From an uncultured bacterium (lineage in GTDB: Bacteria; Auribacterota; Auribacteria; Auribacterales; Auribacteraceae): a stretch of DNA of 25,273 nt. This document shows, one piece after another, positions 1,952 to 14,139 of the stretch (the stretch's first letter is position 1; every line of letters begins with the position of its first letter). Both the position numbers and the translations under genes were made by a program. The stretch spans positions 1 to 25,273 of the forward strand of contig CAYVGJ010000006.1 of assembly GCA_964451165.1 (NCBI GenBank), written 5' to 3'. The notes under the pieces are model-generated. The model saw nothing but the letters and a program-made list of their open reading frames with translations. It made no database searches and was not told where the DNA came from.

Positions 1952-2914
1952 TTATTTTTTAAATGAGTTTAAAATTGAGATTATTTTATCTGCAGGTGAT
2001 ATAATCCATTTCGGGAAAAAGCTTAATATAAAATAGCATATCATTTTATCGTATTTCTTTAGGTGAAATATATATCTTTGGCAAAATCTGCGTACCTTCA
2101 GATAATCTCCTGAATGATGAAAAGCTCTTATCTGTTCGGATATCAGTTTGGTATTGGTTGTTGTTTCTATATCAAACTTAAGAATTTCAGCAGGATCGAA
2201 AGATTCGTAACTATCTGTTCCACTGGAAATTCTTTCATGATAAAATTCCCTTGCTTTTTCTCTGAATAGAAATTGCTGTGCTCTTTTCTGAAACGATATA
2301 GCTGTTTTTTGTATTCTGTATTTAATAAGATATTCCGGAATCACTGATATTTTTTTTGTTTCAGTTATCAAACGTAAATATAAATCATAATCCTGGGCGA
2401 ATATGAATTTGTCTCTATACTGAATCCCCTGTCTATTTTTAAAAAAAATTGATGAATGGGTTAACTGGTTATTCTTAATGATAAGATTCTTCAACTCATC
2501 TTCAGTTGTAGATGGTAAGAACCGGGAAATCTCTTTTCCAATTTCATCTATATATATTACTCCACATCCCATAAGCGAACAGTCGTGAGATTCCATGAAA
2601 TCAAATTGTTTTTGCAGGCGTTTAGGGAGCGAAACATCGTTTGCGTCCTGGCGCGCGATATACTTGCCTTGAGCTAAAGACAACCCTTTATTTAATGAGC
2701 GGGTTAATCCGAGATTTGTTTGGTTGATTATGATACGTATCCGTCTGTCTGTGATACTGTTTATTATTTCGCTCGTTTTCTGGTTCGAACCGTCGTTTAT
2801 TATTATAAACTCAAGATTAGTTAAACTTTGTGAAAGAATACAATCAATCGATTCCTCAAGATACAGCTCATCGTTATAAACACACATTAAAACAGAAACC
2901 AGAGGCGTATTCAT
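1952..2914 (-). CDS. Glycosyltransferase family 2
   Basis: N-terminal VSVLMCVYNDELYLEESIDCILSQSLTNLEFIIINDGS (GT-A fold, DxD-type). There is a 4-nt gap to the upstream methyltransferase stop, so the two are translationally coupled. Confidence 0.8.
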   Translation of the reverse strand: MNTPLVSVLMCVYNDELYLEESIDCILSQSLTNLEFIIINDGSNQKTSEIINSITDRRIRIIINQTNLGLTRSLNKGLSLAQGKYIARQDANDVSLPKRLQKQFDFMESHDCSLMGCGVIYIDEIGKEISRFLPSTTEDELKNLIIKNNQLTHSSIFFKNRQGIQYRDKFIFAQDYDLYLRLITETKKISVIPEYLIKYRIQKTAISFQKRAQQFLFREKAREFYHERISSGTDSYESFDPAEILKFDIETTTNTKLISEQIRAFHHSGDYLKVRRFCQRYIFHLKKYDKMICYFILSFFPKWIISPADKIISILNSFKK

Positions 2915-2918
2915 AAGT

Positions 2919-3695
2919 TTATTGCCGGAAAGATAACAGCAGATATTTCAGCGATTCAATCAAATCCACTCTTCGTAAAAGATATTTTGACCACAATCTG
3001 TACGCTGTTATTTTTCCTTTTTCAAATCTATGCTTGTTTTCAACTAAAAAATGGTTAATCTTATCATCGAATTCTTTTAGCTGTGGTTGCGAATCACAAC
3101 AGGCAAACGCGAAATATGGGCAGACTTCGTTGTAAATCCGATATATTTTCACAAACTCAAAAGAATTTTTTAGGGATTCATAAAGTTTTAGTTCAGTATA
3201 CATATACAAATGGTATTTATTCCATTTAAGAAACACAGGAATTAACGAATCTCTTTCAACAAGCGGAGTTGTACCGAACAAAACCCCGTTTTTCTTTAAA
3301 TGTTGTTTCATACCATTTATGTATTTTAGCCCATCTTCACGTTTTAAGTGTTCTATGGAATCTAACGCCAGAGCTATATCATAATTTTTTTGTTCCAGCT
3401 CAATTTTTGTGGCATCCATAGTTAAAAATTTGCATTTTTCCGTATTATATTTCAATTGGGGCATTGGAGCAGCAAGATCAAACCCGGTAACACAATCCGC
3501 GATAGGAACAATATAGCTGACTGTTCCCCACCCTGTTCCACAACAGGTATCTAAAACCTTTTTACCTTCGCAGAATTTCCGGCTGAGCTGATATCTTTCT
3601 ATAAGCAGTTTTGTCCATGGATCTCTCTTCCATGTTTCAGATACCGGATCGAGTCGTCCCACATAATCCTTATTTGACATTGTATGTCCCTTCAA
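2919..3695 (-). CDS. Class I SAM-dependent methyltransferase
   Basis: SAM motif I VLDTCCGTGWGT followed by acidic motif II/III spacing (FDLA...MDAT...LDSIEH). Overlaps the radical SAM gene by 26 nt. Confidence 0.7.
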   Translation of the reverse strand: MKGHTMSNKDYVGRLDPVSETWKRDPWTKLLIERYQLSRKFCEGKKVLDTCCGTGWGTVSYIVPIADCVTGFDLAAPMPQLKYNTEKCKFLTMDATKIELEQKNYDIALALDSIEHLKREDGLKYINGMKQHLKKNGVLFGTTPLVERDSLIPVFLKWNKYHLYMYTELKLYESLKNSFEFVKIYRIYNEVCPYFAFACCDSQPQLKEFDDKINHFLVENKHRFEKGKITAYRLWSKYLLRRVDLIESLKYLLLSFRQ

Positions 3696-4785
3696 CGAGC
3701 GGCCTGTTTGTTATTAGTTTTGACAAATACCATTTCAGAACAAAGAAAGGCGAATTTGTTACGCTCGGATATATATCGGAATCCCCGCATAATCCATTCG
3801 GATACATACAATCACAATTTTTAATCTCTTTTAATATTTTTGGAGATATACTGTTCCATATATCACTGAAACATTTTTCCCTGATATTGCCAATAATTCT
3901 ATCATTACTTAACTTGAAATTACACGGGAATACATTTCCCTCCGGATCAATGTGAACAATCTGCTGACCGGCAAAACACGGCATTTTTCGTTTATTGATA
4001 ATATGATCGTATAGGCAAGCAAGAGTTATGTTTCTTGGCAGGAAAAATATGCTTGCGAGTTTTCCTAATATATTGTCAGGCAGTACCTTTTCTTCCCTGC
4101 AATATTTGTCGAGAACTTTATCCATTCCGGGTTCCCAGAAAACCAGATCTTTATCCGTTACATCAAACCGATCGTTCATAACGGTCCAGCAAATATAAGC
4201 TTTGGACCCTTTTTTGCGAGCAAATTCTCTAACCCATTCGAAATAGTTGACATTATCTTTACAGAAAGTGAAACTAAATTCACAGTGTACTAAATCTTTG
4301 AGCCTGTCATATGTTTCCAATGCTTTTTCATATGCTCCTTCAATTCCACGTGTTTTATCATGCACTTCTTTTGGACCATTCAAACTTATGCCTACAAGCC
4401 TGAATTGAATATCCGGATTATCTTTCAGGATTTTTTTAAATACCCTTTCTTCAACATCAGGGCTCATGCCATGAGTTGTAATTCCAAACGTTGCTTGGGG
4501 TATATTCTTATGGAGAGTTGAAATTAACTCTGGTAAATCAGGCCTTAATGTGGGTTCTCCACCGCTCAATGTAATATACTGAACATGTTTAAAATATGGA
4601 GATTTAGAGAATTTATCAATTTCTTGAATCGAGAGGTCATTCAAACCTGCGGTTTTGTCTTTCCAAATAGAACAAGTTATGCATCTTGAATTGCATTTCC
4701 ATGTAGTCGTGAATCGTAAACCGATAATTTTGTCTCTCATTCCAAACTGATGTTTCAACCAGTTACAATAACGTCTTCCTATCAT
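3670..4785 (-). CDS. Radical SAM enzyme with C-terminal SPASM/twitch-like Cys cluster
   Basis: CNSRCITC (CxxxCxxC) at residues 31-38; a GGEPTL glycine-rich SAM motif; C-terminal CFAGQQIVHIDPEGNVFPC...GNIREKCFSDIW...CDCMYPNGLCGD. AAGGAA SD 6 nt upstream of the ATG at 4785. Overlaps the flippase gene by 23 nt. Confidence 0.75.
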   Translation of the reverse strand: MIGRRYCNWLKHQFGMRDKIIGLRFTTTWKCNSRCITCSIWKDKTAGLNDLSIQEIDKFSKSPYFKHVQYITLSGGEPTLRPDLPELISTLHKNIPQATFGITTHGMSPDVEERVFKKILKDNPDIQFRLVGISLNGPKEVHDKTRGIEGAYEKALETYDRLKDLVHCEFSFTFCKDNVNYFEWVREFARKKGSKAYICWTVMNDRFDVTDKDLVFWEPGMDKVLDKYCREEKVLPDNILGKLASIFFLPRNITLACLYDHIINKRKMPCFAGQQIVHIDPEGNVFPCNFKLSNDRIIGNIREKCFSDIWNSISPKILKEIKNCDCMYPNGLCGDSDIYPSVTNSPFFVLKWYLSKLITNRPLVEGTYNVK

Positions 4786-6055
4786 TTTTTAATTCCTTAC
4801 TTCTAATGTTAAGTTTTTTGAAATATATGAAATTCGACAATGATATACAAATAGAATGAACTATCAATGTTGCCAGAAAAACACCAACAAAACCATAATA
4901 CTTTATTAAAACCAAATCCAGTATAATATTACTTAATCCTCCCAAAAAAGTCAAAACAGAAAGTATTTTAGCGTATCCTGACGGAGTGATAAATGCATTT
5001 GCCGTAAAACTCCCCCAAATTTTTAAAGGAAGAAGAAAAGATAATATTTTTAATATCTGTATGAATGATTCATCGTTATACTTTGAACCCCATTGGTTTA
5101 AGATTACAATAAAAAAAATGTAAATTAAAATTGCCGTAACAATCGATAACGGCAACCCGTATATTGCCGATAACCTGAACTTTTCGCGCAATTTATTGTA
5201 TTCCTTCATAGAACTCCATCTGGATGCGTCAGGCGCGATTGTCTGCCCTAATATTATTGAGGGCATTAATATGAAATTAAATATATTGTCAATAATTCCA
5301 TAATACCCGATCTCTACCATATAACCGAATTTTTCCATAATAAGGATGTCTATTCTGGTATACATGAAATAAGATACATTCGCGATACCTATGTACATAG
5401 CGTATTTCGCAATTTTTCTCATAACATCGGAATTGAATCCACGTGTAGATATCGGAGCGGAAAAAAGAAGCCCGATTAAATATATAAACTGAATTGCCGC
5501 AACAGATAATACAGCCCCGAATAGTTTATATTTCATTATCAGTATAAAAGATATACCGATAGCGAAACCGCACGCATATATATTTCTGAAAAAAAGGTCT
5601 TTGAATTTTTTCTTACCCCGATAAATTCCATCTAATAACGATATAAAAGGTGTGATATAAAGATTTGGAATAAGAACCAGAATATATTTGTAATAATTAT
5701 GGAATAATTTCGAGCCGAAAATTATTATAAATAGCGAGCTGATAGTTGCCAGTATAATAATTATTACTGAAGCCGACCCGAATACCTTTTTCTCATTATC
5801 GGATTGCAGAGCAGAATATTCAGCGGTATATTTTGAAGCGGACGCTGAGATTCCAAAATCACAAACTATTATAAAAAGCATCATTATCGACGATATATAT
5901 GTTATAATACCGTATTCAACTGAAGTCAAATAAGATAAGGAAATCAGAAGGATACTTATCGATAAAACACTTTTTAATAATGTTTGCGATGATCTCCAAA
6001 AAAAATTTTTAAACAAAATCTTATTTTTATTAAAAAAGTACAATAATTTTTTCAT
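4763..6055 (-). CDS. Polysaccharide biosynthesis protein / oligosaccharide flippase (MOP superfamily, Wzx-like)
   Basis: 430 aa, about 12 predicted TM helices, extremely AT-rich (about 25-32% GC in counted windows), and positioned inside the glycosyltransferase cluster. Confidence 0.65.
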   Translation of the reverse strand: MKKLLYFFNKNKILFKNFFWRSSQTLLKSVLSISILLISLSYLTSVEYGIITYISSIMMLFIIVCDFGISASASKYTAEYSALQSDNEKKVFGSASVIIIILATISSLFIIIFGSKLFHNYYKYILVLIPNLYITPFISLLDGIYRGKKKFKDLFFRNIYACGFAIGISFILIMKYKLFGAVLSVAAIQFIYLIGLLFSAPISTRGFNSDVMRKIAKYAMYIGIANVSYFMYTRIDILIMEKFGYMVEIGYYGIIDNIFNFILMPSIILGQTIAPDASRWSSMKEYNKLREKFRLSAIYGLPLSIVTAILIYIFFIVILNQWGSKYNDESFIQILKILSFLLPLKIWGSFTANAFITPSGYAKILSVLTFLGGLSNIILDLVLIKYYGFVGVFLATLIVHSICISLSNFIYFKKLNIRSKELKNDRKTLL

Positions 6056-6126
6056 TTAAATATTTTATGTTATTAATTATCATTTCAATATTATAAAACT
6101 ATAAAATTCATAAGTAGAGATAATTT

Positions 6127-7062
6127 ATGCCGAAATATAATCCGAAAGTAAGTGTTATAATACCTTCATATAACAGAGCTCACATAATTTTAAACTGTCT
6201 CGAAAGTGTTTGTTCCCAAACATACAGTAATTTAGAAATAATAATTGTCGATGACGGTTCAAAAGACAATACATCCGATGTCGTATCCCAATATAAAGAT
6301 TCAAGGATTATATATGTAAAACACGAAAAAAATCAAGGTCTTCCTTCTGCAAGAAATACGGGAATAAAAACGTCTTGTGGAGAAATATTAGCTTTTCAGG
6401 ATACCGATGATTTATGGATGCCGACCAAAATTGAGGAAACCGTTAATGTTTTTGGTGAATCAAGCTCTGATGTAGGCGTTGTTTACGCCGCATCAATAAG
6501 GTATCGAAACAACAAAAAAACTTATCTGCCGGCTTCTTATATAAAACCAAAAGAAGGAGACGTTTTTAAAAGGCTTTTGCTCGGTAATTTTATACCGGCT
6601 ATATCTGCTTGTGTCAGAAGAGAATGTTTTGATCAAGTAGGCATTTTTGATCCATCTCTTCCGAGTTTGGAAGACTGGGAAATGTGGATTCGACTTGCTA
6701 AAAAATACAAATTCAGATTTATCGAAGAACCTTTACAGACAATATATTATACAAAGGACAGTTTAACGGCTAATGTCAGTAATTTTCTTAATGCAGAAAA
6801 ACTTATTTTAAAGAAACATTATAGCGATTTCGCTAAAAATCCTCCGGTTCTTGCTAAACGTTATGCGCAAATTGGTATTTATAACATGTTGTCAGGAAAT
6901 AATAAACAATGCCGTGAATACTTTTATAAAGCTCATGCAGCATGCCAAAACAAATACATCTATAAAACACTTTATTGGTTGTCTGCTTTTCCTGGATTAG
7001 TTTTTATAAAAGCATGTTTTTTGTTCTATATGAATATAAAAAGAATATTAAACAAGTTGTAG
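6127..7062 (+). CDS. Glycosyltransferase family 2
   Basis: VSVIIPSYNRAHIILNCLESVCSQTYSNLEIIIVDDGSKDNT, followed by a DTDD motif (FQDTDDLW). Divergent from the flippase, with a 71-nt AT-rich spacer. Confidence 0.8.
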   Translation: MPKYNPKVSVIIPSYNRAHIILNCLESVCSQTYSNLEIIIVDDGSKDNTSDVVSQYKDSRIIYVKHEKNQGLPSARNTGIKTSCGEILAFQDTDDLWMPTKIEETVNVFGESSSDVGVVYAASIRYRNNKKTYLPASYIKPKEGDVFKRLLLGNFIPAISACVRRECFDQVGIFDPSLPSLEDWEMWIRLAKKYKFRFIEEPLQTIYYTKDSLTANVSNFLNAEKLILKKHYSDFAKNPPVLAKRYAQIGIYNMLSGNNKQCREYFYKAHAACQNKYIYKTLYWLSAFPGLVFIKACFLFYMNIKRILNKL

Positions 7063-7088
7063 ATAATTTAAAACATAAGGAGAAATAA

Positions 7089-7871
7089 ATGATATGCCCG
7101 CTATGCTCGAGATCCACCGAAAAGTTATTTTATAAAACCGATGATTTAATCTTGTATAAATGTTCATGCGGTTTTGTTTTTCACAACCAACAAACAGAAT
7201 ATAACGATCAATACAGTATTGAATTCGCCAAAACACGGAAATTTATGTATCCGGATAGAGCCGAATGTCTTAGAGATATAGTTCAGCGGATTCGCAAATA
7301 TAAACCCGCGGGAAACCTTCTTGATATAGGATGTGGAGACGGGCATTTTTTAAGTTATGCAAAAGATTATTATGATATTTCCGGAATAGAACCTTCATAT
7401 GATTTATCAGTTCACGCTTCGAAAATACTGAGTATTCCTGTTGTGCATGGTTATTATCCGGCTGACTTAAAAAATACTCAAAAAAGCGATATCATAACAA
7501 TGATCCAGGTTATGGAACATATCCCTAACCCTGTTAAGATATTGGAACATATCTACAATAACTTGAGTCAAGGCGGTTTAGTTGTTATAGAAATACCATC
7601 AATTTCCGCGCCGCATTTTTTATTATATCGCTTAACCGGTATAAAACGATTTGTGAATAATCCATATGGTATAATAAAAAATCATGTCGGATATTATTCA
7701 CCAAAAAGATTTTTATCTCTCATGAACTCCATTGGATTTAAAAAAATTGAATTAACAACCGGACGATGGCAAGTTAAATACAAAGGTACATTGAAATCAA
7801 TCGCAAAAATAATTGATCCGGTTTTCAATATGCTGAGAATAGGTGGAATTCTTTATATCGGAACCAAGTAA
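7089..7871 (+). CDS. Class I SAM-dependent methyltransferase with N-terminal C4 zinc ribbon
   Basis: CPLCSRS...YKCSCGFVF zinc ribbon, then LLDIGCGDGHFLSY (motif I) and VIEIPS (post II). AAGGAG SD 7 nt upstream of the ATG. Confidence 0.7.
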   Translation: MICPLCSRSTEKLFYKTDDLILYKCSCGFVFHNQQTEYNDQYSIEFAKTRKFMYPDRAECLRDIVQRIRKYKPAGNLLDIGCGDGHFLSYAKDYYDISGIEPSYDLSVHASKILSIPVVHGYYPADLKNTQKSDIITMIQVMEHIPNPVKILEHIYNNLSQGGLVVIEIPSISAPHFLLYRLTGIKRFVNNPYGIIKNHVGYYSPKRFLSLMNSIGFKKIELTTGRWQVKYKGTLKSIAKIIDPVFNMLRIGGILYIGTK

Positions 7872-8718: not shown

Positions 8719-9318
8719 TTATTCGGGTTTTTCTTTAGTTGGTTCATCACTCGAAACTTGTTTACTGACGCTTCGCCTTGATGGTGTTTTCTTCTTTTCT
8801 TCGACTGCGGGTTTTATTTCATTTGATTGTTGCTTTTTTTCATCGGATTCTTGTTTTGGCTCTTCTGCTGGTTTTTCTTCCGTTACAGTTTCTTGAGCAA
8901 CATTCTCTTGAGGTTTTTGCTCTTCTTTTTGTTCTGTATTAACATCTTTTTTACCATGGACTATTATGAATGTTTTTTCCGGTTTAAATTCAAAAAGTTT
9001 TTTTAAACCTCGCACATATGATTGAATTTTTTCGCTCAGCTCAGAAATTAAGATTTCATAACTTTTTATTTTATTCAATTGTTCCTGTAGCGAAAAAAAT
9101 TTATTATTCTTCCACTGGTTATATGCTTCTTTACCAAGTTTTAAATATTCATACTTAATTTTTGATTCTTTTAATTTGATCATTATAAAACAACTGGCAA
9201 TCTCATAACACATAACTGCGATAGACGCTATCCATTTAGCAGAAACAGATAGAAAATCTATTGTTTTCTGGGAATAGATAATAAAATTCTTCTTTATTTT
9301 TTCTTTATCGGGTTTCAT
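8719..9318 (-). CDS. Hypothetical membrane-anchored coiled-coil protein with K/E/Q-rich disordered tail
   Basis: A single predicted TM (AKWIASIAVMCYEIASCFIMI), followed by a heptad-like coiled-coil region, then about 70 aa of low-complexity EEK/PQE-rich sequence. AAGGGGA SD 7 nt upstream. Confidence 0.5.
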   Translation of the reverse strand: MKPDKEKIKKNFIIYSQKTIDFLSVSAKWIASIAVMCYEIASCFIMIKLKESKIKYEYLKLGKEAYNQWKNNKFFSLQEQLNKIKSYEILISELSEKIQSYVRGLKKLFEFKPEKTFIIVHGKKDVNTEQKEEQKPQENVAQETVTEEKPAEEPKQESDEKKQQSNEIKPAVEEKKKTPSRRSVSKQVSSDEPTKEKPE

Positions 9319-9357: not shown

Positions 9358-9498
9358 TTAATTGATTCCGGGCCCATCGAGGCAAATATTGACAAAAGAT
9401 TCTTGCAGTCTTCTTGCATGACGCTCAGTATTATAACAACCGCACAGAACAGAAGTCAACCATGAAATCAAAATTAATGCGACAATAAAACGTTTCAT
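9358..9498 (-). CDS. Putative small lipoprotein (46 aa), not in the supplied ORF track
   Basis: Manual translation: MKRFIVALILISWLTSVLCGCYNTERHARRLQESFVNICLDGPGIN. There is a signal peptide with a lipobox-like LCGC. AAGGGAG SD 9 nt upstream of the ATG (9496-9498). The stop lies 39 nt before the next gene's start. Confidence 0.35.
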   Translation of the reverse strand: MKRFIVALILISWLTSVLCGCYNTERHARRLQESFVNICLDGPGIN

Positions 9499-10045: not shown

Positions 10046-11788
10046 TCACAAAATCCGATGTAAATAAGGTATTAATCCAGCTATGATAAAATGCATATCG
10101 ACAATATCCGAAAAGTTTAAATTCAAGGAATATTGCAATAGATCGTTTTTTAAAGATGATATATAAGTACTCCATAAAGGAATCAGCAACATAAGCCAGA
10201 CCGGAGATTTCCAAATAACAGTTGAATTAATAACAATCAAAAAACTTGTGAATATAACAAGAATTTTTAATATCTTCAGAACTTTATCTTTACCCATATA
10301 TATAGGAAGTGTTTCAACTCCAACCATCATGTCTTCCTGAATTTCCCTTATATCATTTCCAATTGATCTTATTGCGGCAAGAGTTGCAACAAAAAATATT
10401 GCTGTTAAATTTGTAGTATAAAAAAAATTAACACCTGAAGAAATAAGAGGAACAAATACCAATACCGTTACCCATCCAAGAACCACAAAAAGATCTTTAG
10501 ATCCGGGAATTCGGCTAATTTTTTTAATAGAAATATTTCTATTTTTAAAATATGGCAAGCCAATACTCTGGTAAAAAAAACCGAAAAAAAGTAAAAGTAT
10601 AGATAAAATAAAGGGAATTATTCCAAGTTTAAAACTTACAATCAAAACAGTTATGATAGATATTGTTATTATTGAAACAATAGATTTTTTACGCCGGTCG
10701 TAAAATTTAATTTTTTCCGGTTCGTTTAGTTTCAAAAACCATTTTTTCTTTAATCCTTTAAAACTATAAACAGCAAGTATATAAAAAAAGGAAAGCACAA
10801 AGTATTCTTTCCTTGAATATAAGTTCTGCATTGAGCAAGCGCTATAACTCAGCCAACCTGCTGCAAAAGCAACAAGGAGATTAGTGTTGCGTATAAAATT
10901 CCATGTTTTACTGAACAATTTTAGTATTACAGGGAGGTTTTCTTGCTGACCGCATTTTATCTTGTATACAATCTGTTTTATCATCCAGTTTGGTGTTGAA
11001 GCTCCTGCGGTAACCCCGATTCTTTGATATTTATTGAAGTCGATCTGTTTTAGATCGGATTCTTCTTCTATATGAATAGCTTTTGTTCCGGTTTCGCCGG
11101 ATATTTTTGCTAAGCGTGTGGTATTAGCGCTGTTTTTGCCTCCAATAATTATCATTAGATCAACCGTTTTTGCTATATTGTAGACCTCATTCTGGCGGGC
11201 TATAGTCGATGGGCAGATCGTATCGAAGACAACACAATTTTCTTTTCCGTATTTTTTGATTATTGCATCACATACATCATTAAAAATTTCTTTCTGTTGT
11301 GTTGTCTGGGCAACAATACAGATTTTTTTTAAATCAGGCAGTTTTTTTACATCATCAATATTATTTATAACAAATCCATTATTTTCAGCGAATCCGAGCA
11401 GTCCTTTTACTTCAGCGTGCCCTTCATCACCAACGATAATTGTAGAGTAACCTTTTAATGCGTGTTTTTTTACAATTCCTTGTACTTTTCCGACATCAGG
11501 GCAGGTCGCGTCGCAAATATTGGCGTTTATGGATTTTAATTGGGTTCTTGTTTTGGGAGGTATACCATGAGCACGGATAACCACATTTTTATTTTTCGCC
11601 AGCATCGGATCGTCAATCGGTTTTATTCCCAAATTACTTAATTGTTCAAGAACCTGCGGATTATGAATTATCGGTCCCAAAGTTACAGTTTCCCGATCTG
11701 ATTTTTTAGCAACCGCAAGAACTTTTTCTACAGCTTTGCGCACGCCTTTGCAGAATCCAGCTGTTTTCGCTACTTTTAACGTACTCAT
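10046..11788 (-). CDS. ispH: 4-hydroxy-3-methylbut-2-enyl diphosphate reductase (IspH/LytB) fused to a C-terminal ~300-aa polytopic membrane domain
   Basis: Residues 1-275 carry all the IspH hallmarks: GFCKGV, HNPQV, RAHG, DATCPDVGKV, GDEGHAEVKG, QTTQ, ICPSTIARQ, GGKNSANTTRLA, GVTAGASTP. Residues ~300-580 have about 9 predicted TM helices and an Asp/Glu-rich motif NDIREIQEDMMVGVETLPIYMG that resembles the first motif of UbiA-type prenyltransferases. The ORF is continuous, so this is not a frameshift artefact within the window. Confidence 0.8.
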   Translation of the reverse strand: MSTLKVAKTAGFCKGVRKAVEKVLAVAKKSDRETVTLGPIIHNPQVLEQLSNLGIKPIDDPMLAKNKNVVIRAHGIPPKTRTQLKSINANICDATCPDVGKVQGIVKKHALKGYSTIIVGDEGHAEVKGLLGFAENNGFVINNIDDVKKLPDLKKICIVAQTTQQKEIFNDVCDAIIKKYGKENCVVFDTICPSTIARQNEVYNIAKTVDLMIIIGGKNSANTTRLAKISGETGTKAIHIEEESDLKQIDFNKYQRIGVTAGASTPNWMIKQIVYKIKCGQQENLPVILKLFSKTWNFIRNTNLLVAFAAGWLSYSACSMQNLYSRKEYFVLSFFYILAVYSFKGLKKKWFLKLNEPEKIKFYDRRKKSIVSIITISIITVLIVSFKLGIIPFILSILLLFFGFFYQSIGLPYFKNRNISIKKISRIPGSKDLFVVLGWVTVLVFVPLISSGVNFFYTTNLTAIFFVATLAAIRSIGNDIREIQEDMMVGVETLPIYMGKDKVLKILKILVIFTSFLIVINSTVIWKSPVWLMLLIPLWSTYISSLKNDLLQYSLNLNFSDIVDMHFIIAGLIPYLHRIL

Positions 11789-14139
11789 TCACCCTCCGGA
11801 TATTTCATTTTTAAAAACTCAATAAAATCTTTCTCTATTCGATTTAATACCTTTTTTATTTCTTGTTCAGGAATTGTAGAAGATATTTCTTTTTTTGATT
11901 TTTCAAAATTCATTCCATTCTTAATTATTGCTTTAATTATCTCTTTCTCGTAATTGATGATTATATTGCTTGTTAATGATTGAGATTCTCTTTTTTCTTC
12001 TTTCCCTGAATTAAGGAGATACTCAAATCCTGTCTGAGATAAATTCAATACAGGATAAAGCCCTTTTTGGCGAATTAAAAAACCTTTTATAGCCAGATTT
12101 GAAATAACGGACTCAATATCTTCACGAGACAAATCCCGATACTGTCCATAATGTTTAGTTTTTTTTAAATTCCATTTACGTATCTGTTGGTTATTAGATC
12201 CTTTCAGGATATCAACGATCACTTTCTGTCCGAATCTATCAGGATAAGATTTTATCGTATAAAGCACAGCCTCAATCAGATTATTTTTATCCACAGTAAT
12301 TTCGGTATTTTTTTCTGCAATTTCACAAGAATCATTTTCTGCTTTTACATCGGGTTTTACGCATGTATCACAACTGTTGCAATTATCACCATTTAAGGTT
12401 TTATCACCAAAATACCGAAGCAGATAAAAGTGCCTACATCCTTTATTGAACACATATCCTTCCATAATTCTAAGGCGCTGGTATTCTTTTCCGGCACGTT
12501 CTTCAAGAAGATCATAGCGAATAGGAAGATTATTGGTATCCAAGTTCTTCTGAATCATACGGATTCCCCTTCCACGGAAAGGCGCCCGGTACTCAATAAT
12601 GTTTTTTTCATTCAATGCGGTTATCGCGCGCATCAGACTATCTTTAGGGATCCTGCATTTAACGGCAAGATCATCGGGATAAAACTGGATTCCGGTATAT
12701 ATCGCGTTTTCGTAGATTTCCATAATGTTTCCCAGAACAAGCCTTTGTATCTCGGCACGGGTATCTATAGAGTCAAGAGCTTCATCGAAATTAAGCAGAA
12801 GTTTAAGTGATGCTTTGTGGTTTTTTTCAGATAACCGTTCGACGATATTATTATCTTCAAGAATTCGAAGAATCGATGATATTGCCATATCGTTTACCTT
12901 GTTAGCGGATAAACATTTCTGTATTTCATCATGTGTCTTAAGGATGATTTCCTCATTTTCTGCATCAAGCACGGAATAGACTTCTTTTATCAATTCTTTG
13001 TCAGGATAACTTCCCTGAATAAAAAATTCCTGAAGATATCTGTCTCCATATCCATAAAGAAGTATGCAAAAAGATCTTTTCCCATCTCTTCCCGCTCTTC
13101 CCGCTTCCTGATAATATGCTTCAAGAGAACCAGGTAAATTAAAATGTATGACTCCCCTTACATTCTTTTTGTTGATACCCATTCCAAAAGCATTTGTACA
13201 AACGATAATCCTAACCGAATCGTTTAAAAAAAGTTCCTGATTGTTTTTCCGATCTTCATCAGTTAAACCCGCATGATAAGAAACAGCTTTTATCTTTTCG
13301 TTAACAAATGCGGTTGTTATTTTATCAACAACTTTTCGTGTTCCAGCATACACAATAAGACTACCTTGTACCTTGCAAACGATTCTTTTCAGCTTTTCGA
13401 GTCGTTTATTTTCGCTGTCGATTCGATCTGTCATAAAAAAAAGGTTTGGCCTGTGAAATCCTGTAATTACTTCGTTGTCGGCGGATAATCCCAGATTAGC
13501 GATAATATCCGATCGGACTTCAGTTGTGGCTGTTGCGGTCAGTGCGATTATAGATCGGATTTTAAGATAATCGGCGACACGTTTTAATCTTAGATAACTC
13601 GGCCTGAAATCATGTCCCCATTCTGAAATGCAATGTGCCTCATCAATAACAAACAATGATATTTTCAGCTCTTTTAACTGTAAAACAAAATTTCTGTTAT
13701 AAAACCGCTCGGGAGCGACATAAACTAACCGGTATTTCCTGTTCGCTATTTCATGCAGACGATTTGAAATCTCAATAGATGTTATAGAGCTGTTAATAAA
13801 AGTACTCGGTATACCCCATGAATTAAGCTGGTCTACCTGATCTTTCATCAGAGCGATCAGCGGAGAAACAACCAGCACAATACCATCCATTATAACAGCA
13901 GGAAGCTGGTAACATAAAGATTTACCTCCGCCTGTAGGCATAATTACAAAGAGATTTTCACCTTTTAGAATACGATTAACTACTTCTTCCTGTCCCGGAA
14001 GAAAATCGTCATAACCAAAATACTTTTTTAGATGTTCTTTAATATTCAAGAAAAGACCCCGATAAACCCATGCAATAGATTTTATAATATTTATCAGTAA
14101 TTTAAAATTAATAGGATTAATATAAAGAAAATTTCTCAA
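11785..14139 (-). CDS. recQ: ATP-dependent DNA helicase RecQ (with internal insertion)
   Basis: FGYDDFLPGQEEVV, IMPTGGGKSLCYQLPA, VIDEAHCISEWGHDFRPSY, EAGRAGRDG, Zn-binding CRHF...CNSCDTC, and an RQC winged helix (FGQKVIVDILKGSNNQQIRKW). The 784 aa compare with about 610 for the E. coli enzyme. There is a 4-nt ATGA overlap with ispH. Confidence 0.85.
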   Translation of the reverse strand: MRNFLYINPINFKLLINIIKSIAWVYRGLFLNIKEHLKKYFGYDDFLPGQEEVVNRILKGENLFVIMPTGGGKSLCYQLPAVIMDGIVLVVSPLIALMKDQVDQLNSWGIPSTFINSSITSIEISNRLHEIANRKYRLVYVAPERFYNRNFVLQLKELKISLFVIDEAHCISEWGHDFRPSYLRLKRVADYLKIRSIIALTATATTEVRSDIIANLGLSADNEVITGFHRPNLFFMTDRIDSENKRLEKLKRIVCKVQGSLIVYAGTRKVVDKITTAFVNEKIKAVSYHAGLTDEDRKNNQELFLNDSVRIIVCTNAFGMGINKKNVRGVIHFNLPGSLEAYYQEAGRAGRDGKRSFCILLYGYGDRYLQEFFIQGSYPDKELIKEVYSVLDAENEEIILKTHDEIQKCLSANKVNDMAISSILRILEDNNIVERLSEKNHKASLKLLLNFDEALDSIDTRAEIQRLVLGNIMEIYENAIYTGIQFYPDDLAVKCRIPKDSLMRAITALNEKNIIEYRAPFRGRGIRMIQKNLDTNNLPIRYDLLEERAGKEYQRLRIMEGYVFNKGCRHFYLLRYFGDKTLNGDNCNSCDTCVKPDVKAENDSCEIAEKNTEITVDKNNLIEAVLYTIKSYPDRFGQKVIVDILKGSNNQQIRKWNLKKTKHYGQYRDLSREDIESVISNLAIKGFLIRQKGLYPVLNLSQTGFEYLLNSGKEEKRESQSLTSNIIINYEKEIIKAIIKNGMNFEKSKKEISSTIPEQEIKKVLNRIEKDFIEFLKMKYPEGE

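Follow-up and report, generated by a model that had tools for sequence, protein, structure and literature searches.

An in-frame fusion of IspH to a nine-helix UbiA-type membrane domain in which lysines replace the metal-binding site of the first Asp-rich motif

IspH, the enzyme that converts HMBPP into IPP and DMAPP, is the exit point of the MEP pathway and a target for antibacterial and antiparasitic drugs. Proteins joining IspH to a UbiA-like domain were described by Rao, O'Dowd, Li, Wang and Oldfield (Chem Sci 2015; PMC4746011), who named them IspH-UbiA 'Rosetta stone' fusions and reported 47 sequences, 'all in sulfate-reducing bacteria' and with 'two DXXXD repeats'. In the same study the membrane part was assigned to the CDD class PT_UbiA_5, the same idea of local supply that is considered below was proposed, the function was left unknown, and expression of the full-length fusion failed (PMC4746011). 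In UbiA, the Asn and the second Asp of the first Asp-rich motif (motif I) are Mg2+ ligands, and in AfUbiA the substitutions N68A and D72A abolish GPP binding, whereas D198A and D202A merely weaken it (PMC4106721). The fusion architecture has been known since 2015 and is widespread, and the preliminary description of the present locus was mistaken in considering an IspH-UbiA fusion undescribed.

The window, which is the whole 25,273-nucleotide stretch of DNA analysed here, carries on its minus strand a single uninterrupted 580-aa frame with an ATG start. This gene is an in-frame fusion of the last MEP-pathway enzyme, IspH, to a nine-helix UbiA-type membrane domain, an identity and architecture of which we are highly confident. 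The ATG overlaps the stop of an upstream RecQ-like ORF (ATGA). The features of the gene, all on the minus strand, are:

10046..11788, minus strand: IspH-UbiA-like fusion ORF, complete, 580 aa plus stop (ORF listing; the identical protein is P0001)
11793..11797, minus strand: GGAGG Shine-Dalgarno / ribosome-binding site, 4 nt upstream of the ATG (read from the sequence)
10943..11788, minus strand: IspH (HMBPP reductase) domain, residues 1-282
10880..10942, minus strand: helical inter-domain linker, residues 283-303 (AlphaFold2 model and family spacing)
10049..10879, minus strand: UbiA-fold membrane domain, residues 304-580, nine TM helices, N-terminus cytoplasmic
10712..10759, minus strand: position of the first UbiA Asp-rich motif, residues 344-359, TM2-TM3 loop, here KGLKKKWFLKLNEPEK (hhalign register, column counts and clade table)
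10496..10561, minus strand: family-specific beta-hairpin in the TM4-TM5 loop, followed by P428-G-S430-K431 (AlphaFold2 strands and hhalign)
10292..10369, minus strand: second Asp-rich motif and its lead-in, residues 474-499 (alignment to ChlG and P0308)

The closest named relatives of the clade to which the window protein belongs are, as judged by sequence identity (55-57%), Candidatus Auribacterota, and the taxonomic placement of the fusion is based on these homologues.

In the N-terminal half, residues 5-277 match the Pfam LYTB profile (PF02401) with E=2e-86 and 290 bits against a cutoff of 24.5, covering profile positions 2-266 of 267, and the TIGR00216 ispH model scores 282 bits against its cutoff of 187.85. 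The domain shows a trefoil alpha/beta fold. In IspH, the 4Fe-4S cluster is bound by three cysteines, and catalysis involves His, Glu, Thr, Ser and Asn residues. Here the cluster cysteines C13, C96 and C192, as well as H42, H74, H124, E126, T162/T163, S220, N222 and S264, are all present and invariant among 26 aligned homologues, and we take their E. coli IspH equivalents to be C12, C96, C197, H41, H74, H124, E126, T167, S225, N227 and S269. Residues 1-282 are predicted to be a complete HMBPP reductase with all cluster-binding and catalytic residues kept, which bears out the original reading of residues 1-275 as a complete IspH with the domain now extending to residue 282. This half of the fusion probably serves as the working IspH of the cell, kept against the membrane's inner face.

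The two halves could have been brought together by an artefact, namely a frameshift, a missed stop or a chimeric assembly that merged ispH with a separate membrane gene downstream. Nothing was found in favour of such an origin, and the following observations reduce its probability to a negligible level, so that we regard it as effectively refuted. The identical 580-aa protein occurs on four contigs from different sources, the longest of which spans 295 kb. Both Pfam domains occur together in at least 120 database clusters, whose members are about 580 aa long and cover 86-100% of the query, and at least 97% in most cases. Further, the membrane domain is in one continuous frame with a complete IspH in 48 of 54 independent species-representative genomes from several phyla, a scan that used a five-sequence alignment of the main branch (patterns KDIPASKD and others) and that is skewed to Nitrospinota and Planctomycetota, having missed the window's clade and the P-G-S-K-T (Desulfobacterota-type) members. 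The fusion locus is interrupted by a contig end in four of the 54 genomes, and in two there is no match to the IspH motif regexes, yet about 290-320 in-frame residues lie upstream. The linker is poorly conserved in sequence and fixed in length, the distance from W268 to A310 being 42 residues in 177 of 218 family members (81%; range 37-45), and the AlphaFold2 model is confident through the junction, with a linker helix at residues 287-301 and a pLDDT of 83-88 over residues 270-300. No internal start or RBS signal was found at the junction when the sequence was read. The in-frame fusion of IspH to a polytopic membrane domain is genuine and recurs in other genomes (at least 120 clusters and 48/54 genomes), and the frameshift or misassembly that had been raised against it from the outset is contradicted by the four contigs, the 48 genomes and the fixed linker length.

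Beyond residue 303, the AlphaFold2 model of the full-length protein (pLDDT 88.4, pTM 0.83) has nine long hydrophobic helices, in agreement with the initial count of about nine TM helices, and in this topology 16 K/R lie inside and 2 outside. In this model the domain is a nine-TM UbiA fold with a predicted cytoplasm-facing cavity, and the cytoplasmic loops that carry motif I, the hairpin with P-x-S-K and motif II are on the same side of the membrane as IspH. The Pfam UbiA profile (PF01040) scores 32.4 bits on the full protein against a cutoff of 34.2 and 34.7-34.8 bits on the domain alone, the match being limited to profile positions 69-227 of 250. At the level of the family the link to PF01040, which had been among the families suggested for the C-terminal domain, is solid, since all 22 of 22 family members match (best E=2.7e-22) and hhalign aligns the fusion family to the canonical UbiA P0308 with 97.3% probability. 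A single-sequence search of the PDB gave no match and only family profiles reached DGGGPS and ChlG, where the motif-II segment found its best matches (DGGGPS 6m31, E=1.3e-3; ChlG 9sau, E=6e-3). The MenA NCBIfam models gave E values of about 1e-5, the best MenA-type match being NF004752 with 24.6 bits against a cutoff of 289, followed by others with 19-22 bits against 264-346. A MenA/MqnP identity was rejected because these scores fall far below cutoff and motif I is absent. A word-indexed database search with the C-terminal domain alone returned no match despite the presence of the identical protein in the database, which is not evidence of absence because a word index is limited on hydrophobic sequence; queried with a C-terminal profile, the same index gave mostly fragments, few of them named. 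The exhaustive search with the C-terminal domain recovered 473 clusters at 50% identity, and the fusion architecture is found in most of the best 150 of these. Split versions also exist, as in Candidatus Scalindua rubra, where IspH (434 aa) and UbiA (158 aa) are found as separate pieces on one contig.

The segment NDIREIQEDMMVGVETLPIYMG lies exactly where the preliminary description had placed it, at residues 478-499 (nt 10292-10357). It had been taken for the first catalytic UbiA motif, and profile alignments to chlorophyll synthase, DGGGPS and canonical UbiA, from which its register was derived, identify it instead as the second Asp-rich motif (motif II), in the TM6-TM7 loop. Because the segment aligns to this second motif, the domain corresponds to a full-length nine-TM UbiA fold and is not truncated, and the earlier caveat of a novel or divergent family falls away. 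Motif II reads R474...N478-D479-I-R-E482-I-Q-E-D486-M-M-V-G490-V-E492-T493-L-P-I-Y-M-G499 and aligns to NDFKSVEGDRQLGLKSLPVMFG of ChlG and NDLGDIKGDMESGRRTIPIALG of P0308; its core is D479-x2-E482-x3-D486-x3-G490, where the first Asp of DxxxD is conservatively replaced by Glu (E482) in the clade. Among 218 full-length homologues, on which all family-wide conservation counts are based, D486 is kept in 217, G490 in 218, E492 in 212, T493 in 208 and R474 in 205.

Motif I has a different fate in this protein. In the register given by hhalign to P0308 (97.3%), the canonical N-D-x-x-D-x-x-x-D corresponds to K344-G345-x-x-K348-x-x-x-L352, with no Asp at motif I and with lysines at both canonical Mg2+ ligand positions; N355-E356-P357 is kept beside it. 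The canonical motif I is incomplete in most family members (D352 occurs in 16/218), and members outside the window's clade have N344 in 89%, D348 in 43% and Y406 in 100% of cases. Between the two motifs, the model contains a beta-hairpin (strands 410-415 and 418-423), a region that hhalign identifies as an 11-residue insertion relative to canonical UbiA. Each of P428, S430 and K431 is found in 212 of the 218 homologues, and the spacing from P412 to P428 is 16 residues in 175/218. In AfUbiA the basic residue K146 contacts the diphosphate and the Tyr Y139 stabilises the carbocation; K431 and Y406 may be their counterparts, the register across the 11-residue insertion being uncertain.

The window's clade comprises 13 members with a mean identity of 48% in the membrane domain and 65% in IspH, the membrane domain being the faster-evolving half. 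None of the 13 has an acidic residue at position 348, and Y406, which the window protein has, varies within the clade in contrast to its full conservation elsewhere. All 13 keep P412, P428, S430, K431, W439, P447, R474, D479, E482, D486, G490, E492, T493, P495, G499 and D564, and 12 of them keep Q484. The loss of motif I, with motif II, P-x-S-K, R474 and D564 retained in 13/13, suggests a functional, non-canonical pocket.

Our best overall explanation, to which we give about an even chance, is a membrane-tethered, bifunctional-looking IspH with a selected pocket and non-canonical binding. The membrane domain would not be a passive anchor and its polar pocket would be under selection, still binding a phosphorylated isoprenoid that is the IspH product or a derivative of it. 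The lysine-rich motif-I loop would replace the first Mg2+ in neutralising the diphosphate, and motif II would hold the single remaining metal. Such a pocket might either transfer the prenyl group to an acceptor or only bind a ligand in order to position or regulate IspH. Lysine in place of Mg2+ is known from soluble ABBA-type prenyltransferases, and we know of no precedent for it in the UbiA superfamily. That the pocket is functional we consider likely, and that it is still a transferase has, in our estimate, slightly less than an even chance. Against this explanation, Pro or Gly accounts for many of the conserved positions, which could have a purely structural role. More tentatively, and with rather low probability, the protein may be either the first UbiA-superfamily member to bind or ionise an isoprenoid diphosphate without the first metal, or a ligand sensor feeding back on IspH. 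In the former case, doing without the first metal would be a new catalytic solution for the UbiA fold, and in the latter the sensor would report the membrane isoprenoid-phosphate pool for feedback control of the last MEP step.

The same data can be read in two other ways. The UbiA-like domain of this clade might perform no catalysis and bind no ligand and just tether IspH, for example near membrane electron donors or near the polyprenyl synthases or polyprenyl-phosphate users downstream, which we consider possible though on the unlikely side. Both motif-I Mg2+ ligands are replaced (K344, K348), and with both lost, Mg2+-dependent prenyl-diphosphate binding should be abolished by the AfUbiA benchmark, where N68A and D72A each have this effect (PMC4106721); by this analogy, the domain in this clade could be catalytically dead. 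Tethering alone would also fit the variability of Y406 in the clade, the faster evolution of the membrane domain (48% against 65% identity) and the nearest named relatives, the Auribacterota, which are inferred fermenters and may need few prenylated quinones. It leaves unexplained, however, ten polar or charged residues in or at the mouth of the membrane cavity (S430, K431, R474, D479, E482, D486, E492, T493 and D564 in 13/13, Q484 in 12/13) that a mere anchor would not need and whose conservation extends across phyla at about 27% identity. In addition, one TM helix would suffice for tethering, and the changes in motif I are directional towards K/R and do not resemble random decay.

At the other extreme, the domain might be a normal Mg2+-dependent prenyltransferase (e.g. 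a MenA/MqnP-like enzyme acting on a quinone ring, or one with another aromatic acceptor) using a prenyl diphosphate made from the DMAPP and IPP of IspH. The UbiA fold, the intact motif II, the weak NCBIfam similarity to the MenA, DGGGPS and ChlG families, and the retention of N344 (89%), D348 (43%) and Y406 (100%) by members outside the clade are all in its favour, but no acidic residue is present at any motif-I ligand position here and the MenA-type models reach only 19-25 bits against cutoffs of 264-346. Gene neighbourhoods are similarly divided. The Brocadia sinica gene has polyprenyl synthase, UbiD-like and UbiE-like genes within 4 kb of it, and a small-molecule O-methyltransferase is found about 16 nt downstream in 8 of 58 loci, all of Nitrospinota type; against this, neighbourhoods are not conserved across the family, the 58 loci showing no conserved link to genes for quinones, chlorophyll or ether lipids and no conserved partner gene that would point to an acceptor or a pathway. 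The O-methyltransferase pairing, being lineage-restricted, was rejected as evidence for the function of the window protein and serves only as a lead. Additionally, a separate UbiA/MenA is present in the genomes examined by Rao et al. (PMC4746011). Direct channelling is not obvious either, because IspH makes C5 units and most UbiA enzymes use longer chains, which require an intervening soluble synthase. Taken together, we regard a canonical transferase as improbable for this protein. The substrate channelling suggested in the preliminary description retains its foundation in a genuine fusion, and the picture of a UbiA enzyme fed with prenyl diphosphate by IspH is weaker for this copy, since its motif I (K344, G345, K348, L352) is without Asp.

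Because a fusion with a fixed-length linker recurs across many anaerobic phyla, the data suggest that the organisms that bear it organise their C5 isoprenoid supply physically at the membrane. The fusion family is about ten times larger and taxonomically much broader than reported, and most of its members do not have a canonical NDxxDxxxD motif I; these points sharpen the question, raised in 2015, of what the partner domain does. The window's clade represents a natural knock-out of motif I with the rest of the pocket intact and offers a ready comparison for biochemical tests.

Among known two-part proteins, IspH-RPS1 (NF000907, bifunctional IspH/ribosomal protein S1) also has an N-terminal IspH and also occurs in anaerobes, and its model is matched by the window protein at positions 3-279. 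Its partner consists, however, of four to six soluble S1 RNA-binding repeats instead of a membrane domain, and a relationship was rejected because nothing beyond the IspH part of NF000907 matches, the whole-protein score being 306 against a cutoff of 624. With MenA, UBIAD1, DGGGPS and ChlG the window protein shares the best sequence-level matches to the motif-II segment, but the scores lie an order of magnitude under the family cutoffs and motif I is absent. Identity to the archaeal UbiA homologues AfUbiA and ApUbiA (4tq3 and 4od4; Huang et al. 2014, PMC4106721) is just 10-12%; relative to these structures, the Mg2+ ligands N68 and D72 of AfUbiA have become K344 and K348, the conserved Lys is preceded by an inserted beta-hairpin of 11 residues, and the domain is covalently fused to IspH.

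The closest counterparts are the fusions of Rao et al., which have the same N-terminal IspH and the same C-terminal UbiA-like domain of about 300 aa and nine TM helices in a protein of about 580 aa, with the C-terminal domain belonging to one sequence family and all members being anaerobe-associated. The C-terminal domain of the window protein matches P0136 (E=3.5e-28), P0167 and P0180, which are Desulfobacterota-type fusions; their clusters share the architecture, at 577-581 aa, and include members named as Thermodesulfobacteriota, Desulfovibrionales and Deltaproteobacteria. Where 47 sequences had been reported, the family here amounts to 473 clusters at 50% identity and spans Nitrospinota, anammox and other Planctomycetota, Zixibacteria, Edwardsbacteria, Acidobacteriota and the Auribacterota-type clade. 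In place of 'two DXXXD repeats', the window protein has motif II only, with motif I lysine-substituted. The IspH-UbiA fusion was known before, and what is corrected here is that the conspicuous Asp-rich segment belongs to the other half of the active site, motif II; what is new, and the sole unusual feature of this copy, is the replacement of the motif-I metal-binding site by lysines.

The fusion gene is one uninterrupted open reading frame (ORF) of 580 codons on the minus strand (10046..11788 in the ORF listing of the window), and the sequence upstream of its ATG start carries GGAGG at a distance of four bases. Since this ATG overlaps the stop of an upstream RecQ-like ORF as ATGA, and the downstream ORF begins one base past the fusion-gene stop, the gene lies within a tightly packed operon. 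The local gene order, namely RecQ-like helicase, IspH-UbiA, MGMT-like DNA_binding_1, a 46-aa ORF, a 199-aa ORF and inositol monophosphatase, is common to P0004, a relative of 57% identity, and is absent at the loci of Brocadia, P0076 and P0111.

Features surrounding the fusion gene in the window
1952-7871, envelope-glycan gene group: three GT2 glycosyltransferases, a radical SAM/SPASM protein, two methyltransferases and a Polysacc_synt flippase
8719-9318, minus strand: 199-aa ORF whose N-terminal segment is hydrophobic and whose long, low-complexity tail is rich in Lys, Glu and Pro; without Pfam match
9358-9498 (from 12291-12431 of L001, the locus carrying the window gene), minus strand: 46-aa ORF between the MGMT-like gene and the 199-aa ORF, without Pfam match
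11785-14139, minus strand: RecQ-like helicase ORF of 784 aa (DEAD, Helicase_C, RecQ_Zn_bind, RQC), ending within the ispH start codon
18636-21429, envelope-glycan gene group: a PMT_2/TPR protein (ArnT/PMT-like, polyprenyl-phosphate-sugar dependent) and another GT2

The region is thus flanked by two groups of envelope-glycan genes, and enzymes of such types use up polyprenyl-phosphate carriers; no evidence tied these flanking groups to the fusion. In L004, the locus of the distant relative P0004, the 199-aa ORF has a 209-aa counterpart in the same position, and an ORF equal in length to the 46-aa ORF is found at the matching position (10358-10498), so the latter may be a conserved small protein. 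The RecQ-then-IspH-UbiA order is also repeated there, again with a 4-nt overlap. Rao et al. 2015 (PMC4746011) mention a protein of Bacteroidales bacterium CF annotated as an 'IspH-helicase' fusion. In the RecQ/IspH-UbiA arrangement, a single-base error would be enough to yield a protein of this type. The neighbouring positions of the two genes may be the source of the annotation, or else a real recurrent linkage.

The junction between IspH and the membrane domain is real. The identical protein (P0001) is present on four contigs (from NCBI, JGI, ENA and Logan, up to 295 kb long), and a full-protein search gave clusters of 562-604 aa, at least 120 in number, with query coverage of 86-100% (mostly 97% or more), nearly all having both PF02401 and PF01040. 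Among 54 species-representative genomes, located by a pattern scan that is biased to Nitrospinota and Planctomycetota and misses the window's own clade, 48 encode complete IspH and the membrane domain in one unbroken frame. Contig ends interrupt four of the 54 loci, with IspH sequence still present in three of these, and the other two have ~290-320 in-frame residues upstream with no match to the IspH motif regexes. The recurrence of the fusion across four contigs and 48 genomes bears out the in-frame architecture put forward in the preliminary description, and removes its concern over misassembly or a frameshift at the junction. When only the C-terminal 298 residues were compared exhaustively with 1.84 billion representatives by HMMER, 473 clusters matched at E<=1e-3 (184 at E<=1e-10); top matches were almost all 575-590 aa long and aligned at positions ~290-575, while shorter ones were mostly truncated gene calls with the IspH tail still at their start. 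A word-indexed protein search with the same 298-aa domain gave no match, though the database contains the identical protein at full length, and one with the domain profile yielded fragments for the most part; of these methods, the exhaustive search alone was reliable for a hydrophobic low-complexity domain.

The distance from W268 (end of IspH) to A310 (TM1) varies only between 37 and 45 residues over 218 members and is 42 in 177 of them, with a linker sequence that is only 20-40% conserved, as expected if both domains need a fixed geometry. Family members are found, among others, in Nitrospinota, 'Nitrospirae', anammox and other Planctomycetota, Zixibacteria, Edwardsbacteria, Acidobacteriota and an Auribacterota-type clade. 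In Candidatus Scalindua rubra the IspH and UbiA parts are called as two ORFs on one 51,495-bp contig (P0302 and P0299), and the database proteins P0161 (307 aa) and P0220 (308 aa) are apparently stand-alone membrane domains starting with Met, without any IspH sequence. These versions could be frameshifts or genuine unfused genes, which in the latter case would be helpful for dissecting domain function.

The IspH half matches Pfam LYTB (residues 5-277, E=2e-86) and the NCBIfam equivalog TIGR00216 (282 bits against a cutoff of 187.85), has all catalytic residues and, judging from its sequence, is very probably active. For the remainder, an AlphaFold2 model from an 89-sequence alignment (pLDDT 88.4, pTM 0.83) places nine long helices past the linker, in agreement with the ~9 transmembrane helices predicted earlier, and a beta-hairpin at residues 410-423. 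The match of the window protein to PF01040 (UbiA) is marginal (32.4 bits for the full protein and 34.7 for the domain alone; cutoff 34.2), and all 22 diverse family members tested match it (best E=2.7e-22). The family profile aligns to the canonical stand-alone UbiA P0308 with 97.3% probability (hhalign, E=2.7e-11), and family profiles match the PDB structures of DGGGPS (6m31, E=1.3e-3) and chlorophyll synthase (9sau, E=6e-3). From these matches and the nine-helix model, the C-terminal half is a complete but divergent UbiA-superfamily fold, neither truncated nor of an unrelated family, which answers the earlier caveat that it might be a novel or divergent family rather than a true UbiA. If the helices are bounded as in the model and the N-terminus is inside, the predicted cytoplasmic loops hold 16 K/R and the outer loops 2. 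The loops of motif I (348-366), the hairpin and P-G-S-K (409-429) and motif II (482-499) are all predicted to face the cytoplasm, the compartment in which IspH has to lie. The hairpin adds 11 residues to the canonical UbiA layout (hhalign), is conserved in length (P412-P428 spacing of 16 residues in 175/218) and is a candidate contact with IspH.

The peptide NDIREIQEDMMVGVETLPIYMG had been located correctly at residues 478-499 (nt 10292-10357) and was labelled an echo of the first catalytic motif. It corresponds instead to the second Asp-rich motif, which sits in the loop joining TM6 and TM7, and is aligned to 'NDFKSVEGDRQLGLKSLPVMFG' of chlorophyll synthase and 'NDLGDIKGDMESGRRTIPIALG' of P0308; its position after six helices with ~80 residues following, noted as a caveat, is exactly where motif II belongs. 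In the hhalign register, motif I of the window protein (S-F-K-G-L-K-K-K-W-F-L), in the loop between TM2 and TM3, lies under V-L-N-D-L-F-D-V-E-V-D of P0308, so that K344-G345-x-x-K348-x-x-x-L352 stands at N-D-x-x-D-x-x-x-D. Downstream, N355-E356-P357-x-K359 is retained and matches canonical N-x-P-x-R.

Conservation in 218 full-length homologues
G490: 218/218
D486: 217/218
W439: 217/218
E492: 212/218
P428, S430 and K431: 212/218 each
T493: 208/218
R474: 205/218
D/E482: 194/218
D479: 185/218

Motif I is far looser than these positions: N344 is found in 190/218, position 345 varies among H, R, N and Q, 87 members have D at position 348 against 65 with N and 24 with E, and V or L predominates at position 352, where no more than 16 members have D. 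The usual form in 50%-identity representatives, L-N-[HR]-F-T-D-[KR]-x-A-x-x-x-N-[DE]-P-x-R, keeps residues matching the Mg2+ binders N68 and D72 of the archaeal homologue AfUbiA and is not a full NDxxDxxxD; the 'two DXXXD repeats' of Rao et al. are therefore true of a minority at best.

The window's clade (the window protein and P0002-P0013, 13 members; closest named relatives Candidatus Auribacterota) has a mean identity of 48% for the membrane domain and 65% for IspH. None of its members has an acidic residue at position 348, which is taken by K, R, N or T; N344 is retained in 7/13, and Y406, 100% conserved outside the clade, is variable inside it. All 13 members keep P412, P428, S430, K431, W439, P447, R474, D479, E482, D486, G490, E492, T493, P495, G499 and D564; the motif-I side of the pocket has thus shifted towards basic residues and the rest is under purifying selection. 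Motif II of the clade is N-D-I-R-E-I-Q-E-D (window 10292-10357, minus strand, and relatives), in which residue 482 is Glu and a further Glu occupies 485, a position that is Gly in 170/218 members. It has therefore gained acidic charge as motif I turned basic, and the two shifts may be a compensating pair. Candidatus Auribacterota have been inferred to be fermentative anaerobes, and a link between this lifestyle and motif-I loss is tempting.

In AfUbiA (Huang et al. 2014, PMC4106721), N68 and D72 of motif I with D198 and D202 of motif II hold two Mg2+, the motif-I Mg2+ bridges the diphosphate directly, and Y139 is the proposed carbocation stabiliser. GPP binding is abolished by N68A, D72A, R22A and K146A, and KD rises only 45-fold in D198A and 21-fold in D202A. 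Judged by these results, the window protein, which has K344 and K348 where AfUbiA has N68 and D72, should be unable to bind prenyl diphosphate canonically. A canonical channelling enzyme is the least likely reading for the window copy and is still reasonable for members with N344, D348 and Y406 intact. The main rival is that the membrane domain is a catalytically dead anchor, which the loss of canonical binding would suit; the pattern of conservation indicates, however, that the membrane pocket is clearly under selection, and we therefore favour a functional but non-canonical pocket. In such a pocket the lysine-rich loop (K344, K347, K348, K349 and K353) would neutralise diphosphate or phosphate directly and motif II would retain one metal, serving either prenyl-group transfer or ligand binding alone.

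Clustering the neighbours of 58 loci revealed no family-wide partner gene. At eight loci, all from Nitrospinota-type MAGs, a family-2 O-methyltransferase (PF00891 with the PF08100 dimerisation domain) follows ~16 nt past the IspH-UbiA stop:
L035:6882-7889, plus strand: O-methyltransferase next to the fusion; likewise at L022, L028, L029, L031, L033, L045 and L057
Family-2 O-methyltransferases are typical of small aromatic substrates, and the pairing could indicate a prenylated and methylated aromatic product in this lineage. In Candidatus Brocadia sinica (L002, BAFN01000001.1, 3894-13023), a polyprenyl synthase, a GT2, a DUF502 protein, a UbiD-family decarboxylase and a UbiE-type methyltransferase lie within 4 kb of the fusion; this is an anammox genome, and its UbiD-family and UbiE-type genes are quinone-pathway-like. 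Both neighbourhoods are leads rather than evidence on the window protein.

The preliminary description knew of no IspH-UbiA-like fusion, but 'IspH-UbiA' fusions were described by Rao et al. 2015 (PMC4746011) from 47 sequences, mainly Desulfobacterales, with a C-terminal UbiA-like domain of CDD class PT_UbiA_5 and unknown function. These authors suggested that the UbiA domain puts IspH at the membrane and that IspH gives high local IPP/DMAPP, and could not express the full-length protein; the literature library searched held no later functional study of these fusions. The clusters matched by the C-terminal domain of the window protein include members named Thermodesulfobacteriota, Desulfovibrionales and Deltaproteobacteria with the same architecture, which places it in that family. 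Compared with the family as described, the taxonomic breadth and the state of motif I are new here: the fusion family to which the window protein belongs is already published, and the loss of the first Asp-rich motif in its clade is so far unreported.
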